A DNA stretch of 64,000 nt, taken from NCBI RefSeq assembly GCF_003790525.1, contig NZ_CP033635.1. One strand, 5' to 3'. Below, piece after piece: positions 9,001 through 15,000 of the stretch. Each line of letters opens with the position of its first letter. The stretch's first letter is position 1. The DNA is from Escherichia coli (GTDB taxonomy: Bacteria > Pseudomonadota > Gammaproteobacteria > Enterobacterales > Enterobacteriaceae). Position numbers: made by a program.

Positions 9001-12000
9001 CGATGGCCGATGGCTGGCATCCGTCGCTGGATTTTCGACGACGGGCTGCGTTGTGGGGAGCAGCTTTGCCGGAACCGGAATTTACACCTGCTGAACTTGC
9101 CGCCTTCCGGGATTACTGGATGGCGGAGGGGAAAGTGTTCACACAGGTTCAGTGGGAGCAGAAATTCGCCCGTCACGTAAATCACGTCAGGGCGCAGGTT
9201 AAACCAGTCAGCAAGGGGGTGAACCATGCAGCAGCACCAGGTGGCACCGCATCACGGGCAGTTCAGGAAATTCGGGCAGCACGTGAGCAGTGGGAACGTG
9301 AAAACGGATTTTTCAGCGACGGAAACAGCCTGGAAGCTGTGGGAACTCATGGGGGAGGTTTATTCGGACCGCTGGACCCGGAAGAACGGGACCGCACCTT
9401 CGAAGCTCTGGATTGCACAGATTGGTGCGATGACTGAGCAGCAAATCCGGCAGGTCTGCCGCCAGTGCATGGACCGCTGCCGGGCGGGTGAAACATGGCC
9501 TCCTGACCTGGCTGAGTTTGTGGCGCTGATTTCTGAAAGCGGAGCCAATCCATTCGGTCTGACGTTGGATGCCGTGATGGAGGAGTACCGTCGCTGGCGC
9601 AACGAGTCCTGGCGATACGACGGGAGCGATAAATACCCGTGGTCTCAGCCTGTGCTGTATCACATATGCCTCGAGATGCGTTCAAAGGGGATTGAGCGGC
9701 AGATGACCGAAGGGGAGTTAAAACGGCTTGCAGAACGGCAACTGACGAAATGGTCAAAGCATGTTGGTATGGGCCTCAGCGTTCCGCCAGTCCGGCGACA
9801 ACTGGCGGCCCCCAAACGCCCGTCGGGACCAACGCCAATTGAGTTGCTGAAACAGGAGTATGAACGCCGGAAAGCGGCTGGTTTTGTCTGAGTTGAGAAG
9901 TAATTTTTACCGGGAGGAAATTTATGGAGACTGTTTTTGACGCACTGAAAGCGATGGGAAAAGCCACATCGGTAGAACTGGCTACGCGACTTGATATCAG
10001 TCGTGAAGAAGTGCTGAACGAGCTGTGGGAACTCAAAAGAAATGGCGTCGTTGATAAAACTGGTCACACCTGGTTTCTGGCTGGCGAAGGTGAATCCCGG
10101 GTAACCGAAGAGCGACCAGAAAAATCTGAAGCACAGGATATGCTGACCGGGGAGGTTGAACAAAAAGTTACCGCAGACATGATGATTGAGTTTATCAGTC
10201 AGGAGGGGGCTAAAACGTGTGAGGAACTGGCGGGTAAGTTCGGTGTCAGCACTCGCAAGGTTGCTTCCACACTGGCGGTAGTAACCGCAACGGGGCGGCT
10301 GGCACGCGTTAATCGGAACGGTAAATTTCGTTACTGCATGCCGGGCGGTAATTTACCAGCAGAGCCGAAAGCGGCATCGGTAGCGGAAACTGATGGTAAA
10401 GCCTTTCCTCAGCCTGCATGTGTTGCGTTACCAGTACAGGAAGCTGCAACACAGGAAGATATTAAAACAGAAACTGTGGCGGACATTGTGCAGTCGCTGC
10501 CATCGTTCACCGAAACGCGAGCGGATGACCTGATTTTACCATCGCTGCATATGGCAAACCGCGAACTGCGTCGGGCGAAAAGTCATGTCCAGAAGTGGGA
10601 GCGAGTCTGCGCCGCGCTGCGGGAGCTGAATAAATATCGCGATATTGTCGCCCAGCTTTGCCAGGAGGAAACCAGTGAGCAACATTAATTACCAGGCACT
10701 GCGAATGGCGGCAGAAAATGCAACCCCTGGCGAATGGTGTTCTGATGATTACTATGGGGTAATTGCTGATGCCGGACTGAACGCAAATTACTACATAGCA
10801 TCATGCTCAGGACCAGATAATCGCGCTAATAAGCGATTCATAGCAGCAGCCAATCCGGCTACCGTGCTGGCAGTGCTTGATGAACGGGAAGCCCAAAACA
10901 AACGCATTGCTGAACTGGAAATTAATCTTGCTGCACTTGCGGCGGAGAATGCGGGGCTGAAACACGCAATGGCCGTAACTCTTGAGCATGTGTCGGTCAC
11001 GGATGCAGGGCAGGCCGGAGTTGCTGCGATGATTATTAATGATGCCCTGCACCACAGCGAAACGCCAGCTACCGACGCTTTCCTGGCGGAAGTGCGGGCG
11101 CAGGGGGTGGATATGGCTCGTAACGCGATGATTGATTTTGTTGATGGTGAAGTTGGGCCAAACAAGAACGTTCCGGGGCTGATTAGAGGCGCAGAGATAT
11201 GCGTAAGTATTGCTGAACAGCTTCGCAAAGGAGGCAACCAGTGAGCGAAATTAATTACCAGGCACTGCGTGAGGCGGCGGAACGTGCAATTCCAGCAATG
11301 GAACGCCTGTTAATGTTGCCAGCTGATGATGATTTGTTAAGTGAACAGGAACTTAAAGATTACGGTGTGGATATTGATGCGCTCAACGCCTTCAAATTTC
11401 TGACCGGACCAGAAACCGTGCTGGCGCTGCTGGATGAACGGGAAAGAAACCAGCAATACATAAAACGCCGTGACCAGGAGAACGAGGATATTGCGCTAAC
11501 GGTAGGGAAGCTGCGCGTTGAGCTGGAAGCCGCAGAGAAGCGCATTGCAGAGCTGGAGGGTAATTTCACGGTGCTGGCAGTGGAGAATGCCTCAATGAAG
11601 CTGTTTATCAGGGGTTGTTGCTACGTGTTTGATGGTCAGCAGGATGAAATATCTGATGCGTATATCTGCGCAACAGACGGAGGGATGCCGCAAACCTCGA
11701 CTACAGATGCTTTCCTGGCTGATGTACGGGCGGTGGCGTTTAACGAGCTTCGCGCGGCGTTTGTCAGGCACGCAAAAGTTGCAGGACTGGATGATGCCGA
11801 TACCGTAACGCTTAAGGAAGTGACAGAAGCATTGTTGCATTGTGCGGAACAGATTCGCGCGCCTGAATAATTAAATTTAGTGTTGTAAATAAAATTTAAT
11901 CCTTAACCGGAGGGATTTCTGCACCTTCAGAACAGCAGGAGGCCACCCGAAAGGGCGGTAGTGAAATGCGAAAGTTCAAAATAATTATTGAAACTGGAAT

Positions 12001-15000
12001 AGCTGGTGGAGATTTTGAGGATGTATTCGAAGTGGACGATGACGCAACACCTGATGAAATTCATGACGAAGCAAAAGAAATTTTCTTTAACTACTGCAAT
12101 TACTCATATCACGAAATAAAAGACGAAGAGGAAGAACAAAATGGCTGATTTTGGTTCAACTAAATACAACGTCAGTTTTGAAGAATGGCATGAACTGTTA
12201 ATGGATTATGCAGAGTTACGTGGTGGAAGTGCTGCTGATGCTGAAGCCTGGCGTGATGACTACGAAGCAGGAAAAACTCCGGTCGAAGCATATTGTGATG
12301 AGTGGGGCGATGAATGAGCGAGATTAATTATCAGGAAGGGCATGAAATGGCAGGGCAGGCAAAACCAGTTGCATGGCGATATCGCTACGTGAAAAAAGGC
12401 GTTACGGACTTTCAGGAGAAGATGTGGGTTGGTGACTGGAAATATGTACCGACAAAAGAGGATTGCAACGACAGGCCGAGCTATGAGATTCAGGCCTTAT
12501 TCACTGCCCCGTCAGTCCCGGTGACATCAGAAGGACTGGTTAAAGCCGTGCGCTTTTATGAACAGGTAAAGCGTGAGAATCCACCAGTCGAAACAGGAGC
12601 ATGGAAAGATGCTGTTGATTGGGTGCTCAAAGAGGCCTGCTGTGCTGTCATTCTGAGTAAAGCCGACAATCCACTGGCATCCAGTAATCAGGTTGGCGAA
12701 TTAACAATGTGGGTTAAACGACTGGTCAGTCAACTGAAAAAAGCTCAGCCGGACTGCAAATTACCGGAGAAGGCGATGGATTACCTGAAACGAAATGGAC
12801 TGATAAGCGCGGAGGATATTTTACGATGACCTGGCCTGAAGCATTCACAACGGCAGGAATTGCAATGGCGGAGGCGCTGGTGATGTATTCTATTTGCGGT
12901 TGGGGATAAATCGTTGAAAAAAGCTCCCGACACAAACATGAGTCGGGAGCTTTGATTTATATGGCTTACGAATCCGCCAGCAAGAGAGCGGGCGGACATT
13001 TTATTCTAACACCGGAATTCTGTGGGGACAAGTTTATAAGAAATCGGTTTCATAACTTTGTCCGCCATGATAAACACCTGCGATAAAGACTTTATTGTCA
13101 TCAACGGCAAAAGCAATAATCGTTCTGTGGCGGAAATGAGTTACCCGCATCCCCTGGCGAATATCATCGCGTTTATTGCCCCGATGCGGAAATGCAGAAA
13201 ACCCATCAAGATAATCAAGAAGCGCATTGGCATAATTGTCAGCAATGACGCCTCCTGCTTTCTCCGTTATATATCTGTGCAGGTTTATTATCTGCTGTTC
13301 GGCCTCGGGGGTAATGATGACTTCAAATGTCATGCAGACTACTTCCCGGATCTAATCGCGGCGCGAACCTGTGAAATGGAGCGTCCGTTGTTTGGGTTTT
13401 CGCGGATAGAATCAAGAGAGGGGGCGACTGAATGCGTTAACCACGCTTCGATTGCTTTATCGCGCTCATTCAGTGCGCGAAGCCCTTCACGAATGACCTC
13501 GCTTTCTGAAGCATAGGCACCGGAAGCCACACGGGAGCGCACCATGTCAGCCATCTCGTTAGTTAATGTAATACTGAATTGTTGGGTTGTACGCATGGTA
13601 AACCTCACGGAGTAGGATAGAACACCATTCGATGATAGCACGCTGCCTGTTGACGACAACAGAAATCAGAGACAATATTGCCTCCAGCCAGCCTGAACAA
13701 CTGGCACCTGCTGCGCCAGCAGAGACAACGGATGGCGCACGATACCAGATTACACAATTCTGATAATCTCGCCGTCTTTGCCAGCAGGCACGGGCGGCAT
13801 TCACACGCATTCAAATCTGACTGGTTCCGGCATGATCCATGTACTGAAGAACAGGCAGAGTGGCTAATTCAGAACTACCGCAGACGTGGTTACGAGTTTC
13901 AGAAAGACCTAAGTCTTGACCGCCTGTACTGGATCATCTCCGTCAGGCTCCCTTATTCCGAACGCCCACCGCGTCCATCCCGCACGTACCAGCAACGGAT
14001 CTGGAGGTAACGTGAGGGTATTAGTGACACCTGAAATTGCTCACCGTCTGGGGATTGTACTTTTCAGACCCGGTCCTGATGCGATGCCTTTGTTTATGCA
14101 GGGGCGTGTGCTGGTGGAGCCTGAACCGAAAAGCATGCGCGGTCTGCCGTCCGGAGTCGTTCCTGCCGTTCGCCAGCCGTTGGCGGAAGATAAATCATTA
14201 CTCCCATTTTTCAGCAATGAGCGTGTGATTCGTGCTGCCGGCGGCGCTGGTGCACTGTCTGACTGGCTGTTGCGTCATGTCAAATCCTGCCAGTGGCCTC
14301 ATGGTGACTATCATCACAGTGAAACCGTCATACATCGTTACGGTACCGGAGCGATGGTGTTGTGCTGGCACTGCGACAACCAGCTGCGTGACCAGACATC
14401 CGAATCACTTGAGCAACTTGCTCAACAAAACCAGGCAGAATGGATGATTGACGTCATACGCCATGCAATGAACGGCACGCAGGAGCGGGAATTATCGCTG
14501 GCTGAATTATGCTGGTGGGCGGTGTGCAATCAGGTGACGGATGCACTACCCGAGACAGTATTGAGTCGTTCGATGGGATTACCTGCGGAAAAAATACGCT
14601 CTGTATACCGCGAAAGCGACATCATACCAGGAGAAAAGACCGCCACCAGCATACTGAAACAGCGCACAAAAAATCTTGTGCTGCCGACCCACCAGCAACA
14701 GAACCGACCACAGGAAAATAAGGTGGTCACCCTTACCGTTGATCCCGATTCTCCGGCTCAGTATCTCCGGCGCCAGAAACCACAACGGGAAGAGATGCCC
14801 GTATACACGCGCTGGGTAAAAACGCAGAAATGCATGACGTGTGGCAATCAGGCAGATGATCCGCATCACATCATTGGTCATGGACTGGGAGGGATGGGAA
14901 CAAAGGCTGACGATTTATTTGTTATTCCGCTGTGTCGTAAATGCCACAACGAACTGCATGCCGGGGTAAAAGAATTTGAAGAAAAACACGGCAGCCAGCT

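Follow-up and report, generated by a model that had tools for sequence, protein, structure and literature searches.

Locus organization and gene authenticity

The two genes described here lie on the plus strand of the window, that is, the whole 64,000-nucleotide stretch of Escherichia coli DNA that was analysed. ORF60 (11966-12148, GC 35.5%) encodes a 60-aa DUF7167 protein with the C-terminus ...IKDEEEEQNG, and ORF58 (12141-12317, GC 44.6%) encodes a 58-aa protein of an unnamed family that corresponds to the C-terminal part of phrog_519. They are preceded on the same strand by two Ead/Ea22 paralogs of 199 aa (10645-11244; PF13935, E 6e-24) and 209 aa (11241-11870; PF13935, E 8e-31) and followed by a 171-aa ORF (12314-12829, plus strand) that belongs to phrog_660. 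ORF60 and ORF58 overlap by 8 nt (ATGGCTGA), the SD sequence of ORF58 (GAGGA, 12128-12132) is embedded in Glu codons of the ORF60 tail, and an ATGA overlap, in which the ORF58 stop is shared with the ATG of the 171-aa ORF, couples the latter translationally to ORF58. Since the region is placed between the replication genes and RusA/Q, it is nin-equivalent, in agreement with the initial annotation. The same annotation had set the pair between Ead/Ea22 paralogs, which is true of its upstream side; for the 171-aa ORF on the other side Pfam gave no match, and the likeness of this ORF to the Ead genes is limited to the N-terminal MSEINYQ, the remainder being unrelated. In phage ArgO145, the ORF60/ORF58 pair is flanked on both sides by Ead/Ea22 genes.

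An AT-rich leader of 95 nt (11871-11965, plus strand) separates the second Ead/Ea22 gene from ORF60. A search of the leader for a sigma-70-like promoter or an intrinsic terminator detected neither, so a moron model with its own promoter or terminator was dropped, and no match to Rfam was obtained. The leader segment is also found alone in phages without the cassette (megablast hits H14-H21, limited to query positions 1-96). RNAfold predicts an element at 11937-11959 (plus strand) that is composed of the SD sequence AGGAGG (11937-11942) and a GC hairpin with a GAAA loop (11942-11959); the distance from this SD sequence to the ATG of ORF60 is 23 nt in linear form and would be about 6 nt with the hairpin folded. 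In a comparison of >80 related loci, the prevalent hairpin allele pairs perfectly over 7 bp (CCGCCC/GGGCGG), the compensatory allele CCACCC/GGGTGG is present in five loci, and the window's own allele contains one A.C mismatch.

Analysis of 39 alleles gave in-frame pN/pS values of 0.09 for ORF60 and 0.04 for ORF58, compared to 0.8-3.5 out of frame. The scan of viral contigs yielded near-identical E. coli copies only and was used for allele statistics rather than for diversity. More distant homologues of both families retain their length down to ~35-40% identity, across phyla. Based on the low pN/pS, the Pfam match to DUF7167, the PHROG matches and the diverse homologues, ORF60 and ORF58 are genuine genes under strong purifying selection and not chance ORFs. 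The GC content of the cassette (35-45%, versus 51% for the window) is as expected of a mobile accessory cassette. The cassette is carried by 2373 of 5426 complete E. coli genomes (~44%) and is also present in Stx2a-converting phages.

Conserved acidity

The initial annotation had singled out the two proteins as small and highly acidic, and our calculations confirm this: they rank first (ORF60) and second (ORF58) in acidity among 85 non-overlapping ORFs of the window (z of about -3.8 and -3.4). ORF60 has a pI of 4.06, 19 D+E among its 60 residues and a net charge of -14 (-0.23 per residue); the corresponding values for ORF58 are 4.05, 16 of 58, and -12 (-0.21 per residue). Such charge densities are close to that of T7 Ocr (-0.24 per residue) and exceed that of gp5.9 (-0.15). 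Since acidic small proteins are common among phages, acidity by itself is weak evidence of function. Over 60 diverse members of each family, the mean net charges of the two families are -0.17 and -0.19 per residue, and invariant acidic columns were observed in both (D19, E22, D24-26, D30, E31, D34 and E38 in the ORF60 family; E15, D33, E35, D39, D40, E42, D53 and E54 in the ORF58 family). Every predicted helix of the two proteins has a solvent-facing acidic face opposite a hydrophobic face. Judged from the sequences, both families maintain negative charge across their members and at specific positions, and high negative charge kept across homologues, a criterion for DNA mimics, is thus found in both ORF60 and ORF58.

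Two protein families with different distributions

Residues 2-53 of ORF60 match positions 1-60 of the 60-position Pfam family DUF7167 (PF23768; E 3.1e-14), in line with the RefSeq label of WP_001224672.1 ('DUF7167 family protein'), and the protein also matches phrog_1997 (E 2e-30). Its AF2 model (pLDDT 87) comprises a beta-hairpin (2-8 and 17-23) followed by an amphipathic helix (29-43), and ends in a poly-Glu tail that is disordered. The 97 representative homologues collected for ORF60 belong to a family that occurs in phages only, in Proteobacteria and Firmicutes, strictly lytic phages included, and DUF7167 relatives adjoin exonuclease, RecT/GamL, gyrase or ligase genes. Tandem two-domain versions of DUF7167 were also found, which hints at a dimeric unit.

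ORF58 has no Pfam match, nor do 13 scanned members of its family; the label 'DUF5419' in the record of Morganella phage Mecenats66 was not reproduced by a Pfam scan. It matches positions 76-137 of the 143-position profile phrog_519 (E 4.5e-23), whose N-terminal part probably stems from fusions or read-throughs involving DUF1187 (P0150, for example). Comparison of 60 sequences revealed the motif F-x2-W...W-x2-D-Y-x2-G-K-T-P...W as invariant or nearly so, and ORF58 contains it, with invariant residues W16, W37, D40, Y41 and G44. The AF2 model (pLDDT 89) is a three-helix mini-bundle (helices 13-27, 34-42 and 47-55).

Relatives of ORF58 were detected in lambdoid, P2-like and Proteus prophages, in the lytic groups Ackermannviridae, Autographiviridae and Jilinvirus, and on 561 plasmids. 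Of these plasmids, 516 are conjugative, IncI2 plasmids with mcr-1 among them. The IncI2 relative, present on hundreds of conjugative plasmids, shares 88% identity with ORF58 and is the first gene of an operon that continues with SPFH/NfeD and T4SS genes. In Proteus prophages the relatives come after RecE/RecT, and in a T7-like phage the relative is flanked by DNA polymerase and exonuclease. In P2-like prophages it is the first gene past gpA, within the gpA-gpQ site, which is a known defence hotspot (PMC9122126). In Ackermannviridae it is located immediately downstream of the major capsid gene; this position, not obviously early, counts against the host-directed role proposed below, as does the operon setting of the IncI2 relative.

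The coupling of the two genes that the initial annotation had reported is real here, as the overlap demonstrates, but it is a local feature: among the loci examined, the two families were never found together outside the E. coli cassette. The idea of an obligate two-component system was dropped for this reason. ORF60 and ORF58 are small proteins independent of each other, and their sharing of one translationally coupled cassette in E. coli lambdoid prophages is incidental.

Comparison with known inhibitors and with the neighbouring Oad2 homologue

Ocr (T7 gp0.3) and ArdA are anti-restriction proteins that mimic DNA and are encoded by phages and conjugative plasmids. ORF60 and ORF58 resemble Ocr in charge density and in being carried on mobile elements, and the ORF58 family resembles ArdA in being common to phages and conjugative plasmids. 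The resemblance ends there: no Pfam match to Ocr was obtained at E<=10, hhalign gave 0.1-0.2% probability against T7 gp0.3, and the models showed no fold likeness to solved Ocr, ArdA or any other solved structure. The Ocr/ArdA-like logic originally proposed is thus not borne out by any sequence, profile or fold likeness to Ocr, ArdA or another known DNA mimic.

T7 gp5.9 and lambda Gam are DNA-mimic nuclease inhibitors encoded beside phage exonuclease/recombination genes, and relatives of ORF60 and ORF58, too, adjoin exonuclease, RecT or DNA polymerase genes. The RecBCD inhibitor gp5.9 is similar to our proteins in size (52 aa versus 58-60 aa) and in its strongly negative charge. However, gp5.9 is a coiled-coil dimer, whereas ORF58 is a predicted three-helix bundle and ORF60 a predicted beta-hairpin plus helix, with no likeness in sequence or profile; hhalign probabilities were <=0.4% against T7 gp5.9, lambda Gam and HK446 Abc2, and no match to Pfam Gam was obtained. 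In size and secondary-structure content, ORF60 is similar to phi29 p56 (a UDG inhibitor), T7 Gp2 and lambda Orf55, all of them mini beta-sheet-plus-helix proteins of phages; for lambda Orf55, this fold class has been described (PMC8614690).

All hhalign comparisons of the two family alignments with 33 small T7, lambda, HK446 and IncI2 proteins (including Ocr, gp5.9, Gp2, gp5.5, Gam, Abc2, Oad2, gp33, Orf55/60a/61/63 and Ea8.5) were negative; the best hit, DUF7167 versus T7 gp1.2, had 8% probability and was not significant. Searches of the PDB by sequence and profile returned only noise for both ORFs, neither of which matched the PADLOC defence models or curated NCBIfam at E<=1 or the Ead_Ea22 HMM (PF13935). 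Homology to a structural or regulatory protein family, which the initial annotation had named as evidence against its proposal, was also searched for, and none was found. Neither sequence is present in the supplements of two large phage accessory-gene screens and a plasmid leading-region study, and a literature search on DUF7167, PF23768 and the protein accessions found no paper, hence no experimentally characterised member.

The 199-aa Ead/Ea22 paralog, two genes upstream of ORF60, is homologous to HK446 gp27 (Oad2; blastp E 8e-13, 37% identity over 127 aa), and the 209-aa paralog matches it weakly (E 1.6e-5). Oad2 (OLD anti-defence 2) inhibits the P2 OLD defence protein and is related to EaE and Ead/Ea22, and recombination-linked regions of this kind are anti-defence hotspots, according to a 2026 preprint that also reports that an Oad2 homologue at 54% identity does not inhibit OLD (bioRxiv 10.64898/2026.07.10.737580). 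ORF60 and ORF58 share the genomic neighbourhood of Oad2 but are not homologous to it (hhalign 0.2%), and the link is by association only.

Proposed role and alternative explanations

The suggestion that the two proteins are counter-defence candidates is supported in part: by their conserved surface acidity, their occurrence in the early modules of numerous unrelated phages, the presence of the ORF58 family on conjugative plasmids, and the Oad2-like neighbour, but not by any likeness to DNA mimics. We regard ORF60 and ORF58 as good candidates for anti-defence proteins or nuclease inhibitors. The context, namely early DNA-metabolism/recombination modules and an Oad2-homologous neighbour, favours a host-directed role, and a host target can further be argued because ORF58 relatives are found in unrelated elements that share hosts but not a life cycle.

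In the mechanism we propose, each protein would be a tiny domain, with a predicted core of aromatic or hydrophobic residues and a surface that is anionic almost throughout, and would act shortly after entry or induction of the element's DNA. It would bind to, and thereby block, the basic surface with which a host protein contacts nucleic acid, an inhibition by occupation on the model of Ocr, ArdA, Gam and gp5.9. The likeliest target would be a nuclease or a defence/repair complex acting on incoming or replicating foreign DNA. That the proteins act on the host, that they work as decoys and what they bind are all inferred, and we consider host-directed inhibition by occupation to be quite possible, if short of probable. 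As to individual targets, RecBCD or another DNA-end or recombination-linked nuclease would have a small chance, as would some other defence system, and type I restriction or BREX a slimmer one.

An alternative, which we regard as unlikely, is that the proteins are directed at the element itself, as small acidic adaptors or chaperones of its basic DNA-binding proteins (Ead/Ea22, replication initiators or recombinases) that tune replication or recombination. Both families are indeed housed in replication and recombination modules, and the coupling of ORF58 relatives to the gene upstream is invariably tight or translational. However, that gene changes with the context, being Ead/Ea22 in Enterobacter prophages, gpA in P2-like prophages, a DUF1187 gene annotated as rcbA-like in IncI2 plasmids and DUF7167 in the window, and therefore there is no fixed phage partner. 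Moreover, the same 51-68 aa protein accompanies lambda O/P-like, P2 gpA, T7-like, T4-like and IncI2 RepA replication, which a shared host target explains more easily.

It is quite improbable that the two proteins modulate the lysis-lysogeny decision through host transcription or physiology in the manner of the lambda exo-xis products (Ea22, Orf63, Orf61, Orf60a and Orf73): they are not homologous to lambda Orf55, Orf60a, Orf61, Orf63 or Ea8.5, both families have members in strictly lytic phages, and the ORF58 family is found on conjugative plasmids, where no such decision exists. An anti-CRISPR function is very improbable. Many Acrs are small and acidic, some being DNA mimics, and Kuttervirus members of phrog_519 have been listed as candidate Acrs by PaCRISPR and AcRanker, a machine-learning prediction only (bioRxiv 10.1101/2022.06.14.493971). 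Our searches gave no sequence or structural match to known Acrs, and the flanking genes are Ead/Ea22 and the 171-aa ORF rather than an aca-type HTH gene. That the ORFs are functionless passengers or mis-called, as their shortness and lack of a known function might suggest, is effectively refuted by the selection data, the length conservation across phyla and the confidence of both AF2 models.

Host-directed inhibition can be extended to a broader proposal, which is somewhat unlikely as a whole. The ORF58 family would be an unrecognised inhibitor, with a new three-helix fold that mimics nucleic acid, common to temperate and lytic phages and conjugative plasmids and aimed at a single DNA-surveillance enzyme conserved in enterobacteria, for example RecBCD or a defence nuclease of wide occurrence. 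A second family of inhibitors, confined to phages, would be formed by DUF7167, with a target conserved from Firmicutes to Proteobacteria, and the two would be joined in E. coli prophages beside Oad2-like genes as a compact anti-defence islet.

IncI2 conjugative plasmids are the main carriers of mcr-1. If either protein inhibits a host nuclease or defence system, it would represent a new inhibitor family common to phages and plasmids; such inhibition would help to explain the establishment of these elements in new hosts, and a very small (51-60 aa) tool protein would be gained. If neither does, ORF60 and ORF58 still rank among the most widely distributed uncharacterised small proteins carried by enterobacterial mobile elements.

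An acidic gene pair in the early region of an E. coli lambdoid prophage

ORF60 (11966-12148, + strand; 60 aa, pI 4.06, 19 Asp+Glu, net charge -14, GC content 35.5%) and ORF58 (12141-12317, + strand; 58 aa, pI 4.05, 16 Asp+Glu, net charge -12, GC content 44.6%) overlap by 8 nt (ATGGCTGA), and the stop codon of ORF58 in turn overlaps the start codon of a 171-aa ORF (ATGA). The GC content of the window is 51%. The window contains 85 non-overlapping ORFs of 50 aa or more (mean charge per residue +0.017, sd 0.066), and ORF60 and ORF58 are the two most acidic of them (-0.23 and -0.21, respectively). 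Based on 39 distinct alleles out of 82 full-length copies, ORF60 and ORF58 have pN/pS values of 0.09 and 0.04, respectively, in the annotated frames, versus 0.8-3.5 in other frames. ORF60 is matched by the Pfam family DUF7167 (E 3e-14) and by phrog_1997, and ORF58 by the C-terminal part of phrog_519 (E 4.5e-23), with no Pfam match found for the latter. The small acidic ORF pair proposed by the initial annotation is supported by all of these data, and both ORFs are acidic genes under selection. Both were already catalogued as uncharacterised families, named in RefSeq 'DUF7167 family protein' (WP_001224672.1, ORF60) and 'hypothetical protein' (WP_000753060.1, ORF58).

The pair lies in what corresponds to the nin region, as first annotated, within the early-right operon of a Rac-like prophage. 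On its upstream side are replication genes, a 254-aa gene of DUF1627 type and two genuine Ead/Ea22 genes (PF13935) encoding 199 aa (10645-11244) and 209 aa (11241-11870). The 171-aa ORF directly downstream shares only MSEINYQ with Ead genes, and a Pfam match was not found for it. It is followed by a RelE/ParE toxin and ParD antitoxin pair annotated on the opposite strand (13034-13659, - strand) and, further downstream, by DUF968, RusA and Q. The proposed location between Ead/Ea22-like paralogs therefore holds on the upstream side and in phage ArgO145, where the pair is located in the early-left operon, in its Ea22 block, with an Ead/Ea22 gene on either side, but not on the downstream side in the window. 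The position relative to Ead genes differs from prophage to prophage, the acidic pair preceding them in some related prophages and following them in others. The same (V/M)S(E/N)INYQ codons open three consecutive genes in the window (10669-10700, 11241-11262 and 12314-12335), and these common 5' ends may serve as recombination joints by which cassettes are shuffled. The RelE/ParE-ParD pair breaks the rightward operon just past the cassette and looks like a moron, since it is equipped with its own promoter-like sites.

No site resembling a promoter or terminator was found flanking ORF60 and ORF58. Upstream of ORF60, a strong Shine-Dalgarno sequence (AGGAGG) is located 23 nt before the ATG, with a GC hairpin bearing a GAAA loop in between (11937-11968). 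In related loci this hairpin mostly has a perfect 7-bp stem, with a compensatory G-C to A-T change in five of them, and the window allele has one A.C mismatch. An intrinsic terminator is ruled out because a U-run is absent; the hairpin may join the Shine-Dalgarno sequence to the ATG, or else be a processing site. In T4 gene 38, a hairpin brings these two elements together. The Shine-Dalgarno sequence of ORF58 (GAGGA), 8 nt before its ATG, lies inside the Glu codons GAA GAG GAA GAA of the ORF60 tail (12122-12140), and thus part of this acidic tail doubles as a translation signal in this cassette.

Distribution of the two families

The cassette is present in 2373 of 5426 complete E. coli genomes and in 21 phage records, including Rac-type and Stx2a-converting phages, and is annotated as hypothetical in all of these records. 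Of 80 viral contigs that carry a near-identical ORF58, 79 have ORF60 directly upstream of it. When profile HMMs of both families were searched against six-frame translations of the other fetched loci, no DUF7167 gene appeared in the fetched flanks of 23 other ORF58-family loci, and no ORF58 relative in those of seven other DUF7167 loci. Therefore, the pairing is a trait of one E. coli cassette and not of the families: the two ORFs, initially described as coupled, do overlap within the cassette, but their families are unpaired elsewhere and independently mobile. 'Actinobacillus phage vB_Apl-pPE4' (PP818812.1) is 96% identical to the E. coli lambdoid DNA of the window across the cassette, and 'Enterococcus phage Efm 3-10' (OR844942.1) has an ORF58 homologue of the Kuttervirus type; in both records the host label seems questionable.

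Searched exhaustively, 1.8 billion representatives yielded 97 DUF7167 proteins at E<=1e-3 (51-60 aa, pI 4.0-4.6), some in tandem two-domain forms. The family is essentially phage-only; 15 plasmid matches, all in Escherichia or Klebsiella records, lack functional annotation. In phages of Klebsiella and Enterococcus, relatives adjoin exonuclease genes; they are also found next to genes for gyrase and ligase in a phage contig of 166 kb, in a nin-like region of a Klebsiella prophage, and in a GamL-RecT module with a weak Ead/Ea22 gene in a metagenomic siphovirus contig (L114, 5298-5507). A second, weak DUF7167-like ORF of 55 aa (E 3.5e-4) adjoins the weak Ead/Ea22 gene about 2.6 kb downstream in L114.

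Members of the ORF58 family (51-70 aa) are all acidic (pI 4.0-4.6), with invariant W16, W37, D40, Y41 and G44 and near-invariant F13, L20, A24, A31, T46, P47 and W55. In Enterobacter prophages they come right after an Ead/Ea22 gene, either close to xis/int or within the nin region. In Salmonella P2-like prophages (L099-L102, 5001-5189), the gene overlaps the 3' end of the replication gene gpA and comes first in the gpA-gpQ interval, which is documented as a hotspot of defence genes (PMC9122126); one of these intervals (L100) also holds an nSTAND/AAA_16 gene. Proteus prophages carry it after RecE-like, RecT and AlpA genes, with an MT-A70 methyltransferase nearby. Other locations are downstream of the major capsid gene in lytic Ackermannviridae (Cba120 orf183, Menlow gp173), between DNA polymerase and exonuclease in a T7-like Koutsourovirus, and in Jilinvirus Arya and Morganella phage Mecenats66.

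The family also occurs on 561 plasmids, 516 of which are conjugative. IncI2 plasmids of about 60 kb, mcr-1 carriers included, have an 88%-identical copy (WP_000753050.1; e.g., L107 8793-9177 and L108; NZ_CP122512.1, LC709173.1) in the order CaiF/GrlA-type regulator, DUF1187 gene, ORF58 homologue, and SPFH/NfeD and T4SS genes. Here the homologue overlaps the DUF1187 gene by 8 nt, and the latter is annotated rcbA in one record; in Rac, rcbA (ydaC) owes its name to a reduction of chromosome breaks (Felczak and Kaguni 2012, as cited in PMC4041452). Some database proteins (P0150 and P0151) are DUF1187-ORF58 read-through fusions. On IncT and MOBH megaplasmids, more distant copies are embedded in long small-gene arrays. 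Across many types of element, both families are housed in early DNA-metabolism or recombination modules.

Comparison with known inhibitors and predicted structures

The initial annotation had likened the pair to Ocr/ArdA-type DNA mimics. In charge per residue, ORF60 (-0.23) and ORF58 (-0.21) are comparable to T7 Ocr (-0.24) and more acidic than T7 gp5.9 (-0.15). The likeness did not extend to homology: a Pfam scan including the Ocr, ArdA, ArdB/KlcA and Gam families gave no match to such inhibitor families at E<=10, and hhalign comparisons of both family alignments with T7 gp0.3, 1.2, 2, 5.5 and 5.9, with lambda Gam and the exo-xis ORFs, and with HK446 Abc2, gp33 and Oad2 (OLD anti-defence 2, gp27) were negative, including the best result (DUF7167 versus T7 gp1.2, 8% probability). 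PADLOC and NCBIfam searches with both proteins were also negative. No publication mentioning DUF7167 or the protein accessions was found, and neither sequence is listed in the supplementary material of two accessory-gene screens or a leading-region study.

AlphaFold2 models built from 60-sequence alignments predict three helices for ORF58 (13-27, 34-42 and 47-55; pLDDT 89), and a beta-hairpin (2-8 and 17-23), a helix (29-43) and a low-confidence acidic tail for ORF60 (pLDDT 87). In every predicted helix of both proteins, acidic residues gather opposite the hydrophobic face, and acidic columns are kept across each family; the surface of both mini-domains should therefore be anionic almost throughout in these models.

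Oad2 inhibits the P2 OLD defence protein and is related to EaE and Ead/Ea22 proteins, and recombination-linked loci have been proposed as reservoirs of RecBCD inhibitors and anti-immunity genes (bioRxiv 10.64898/2026.07.10.737580). The 199-aa Ead/Ea22 protein, whose gene is the second one upstream of ORF60, shows homology to Oad2 (blastp E 8e-13, 37% identity over 127 aa) and shares its C-terminus (...QLRKGGNQ), and the 209-aa paralog matches it weakly (E 1.6e-5). Thus, the acidic pair sits amid relatives of a demonstrated anti-defence protein. This link is an association only, because a 54%-identical Oad2 homologue is inactive against OLD (bioRxiv 10.64898/2026.07.10.737580).

Possible functions

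Because the genes are selected, acidic, independently mobile and resident in early DNA-metabolism or recombination modules, we infer that each protein may act on a host protein, whose basic, nucleic-acid-binding site would be filled by the conserved anionic surface. The likeliest targets would be nucleases or defence complexes encountering foreign DNA as it enters or replicates. Taken as a whole class, such host-directed action is a plausible but tentative reading. Within it, inhibition of RecBCD or a DNA-end nuclease is individually unlikely, as is, to the same degree, inhibition of other defences, and the initially proposed inhibition of type I restriction-modification or BREX is less likely still.

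Alternatively, the two proteins could modulate the element's own DNA-binding proteins, which we regard as improbable, if slightly less so than any single host target named here. A role in modulating lysis-lysogeny has a low probability, and the presence of the families in lytic phages and on plasmids argues against it. The sole prior functional suggestion, a machine-learning anti-CRISPR prediction, concerns Kuttervirus members of phrog_519, and an anti-CRISPR function of ORF60 and ORF58 seems very doubtful. That these genes, with their low pN/pS, are functionless is scarcely credible.

If host-directed occupation of nucleic-acid-binding sites is indeed their function, the two would add new families to the known class of small acidic inhibitors. 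A specialist would not be surprised by the finding; it is unusually well suited to testing, since the proteins are tiny and extremely widespread and ORF58 is common to phages and conjugative plasmids.
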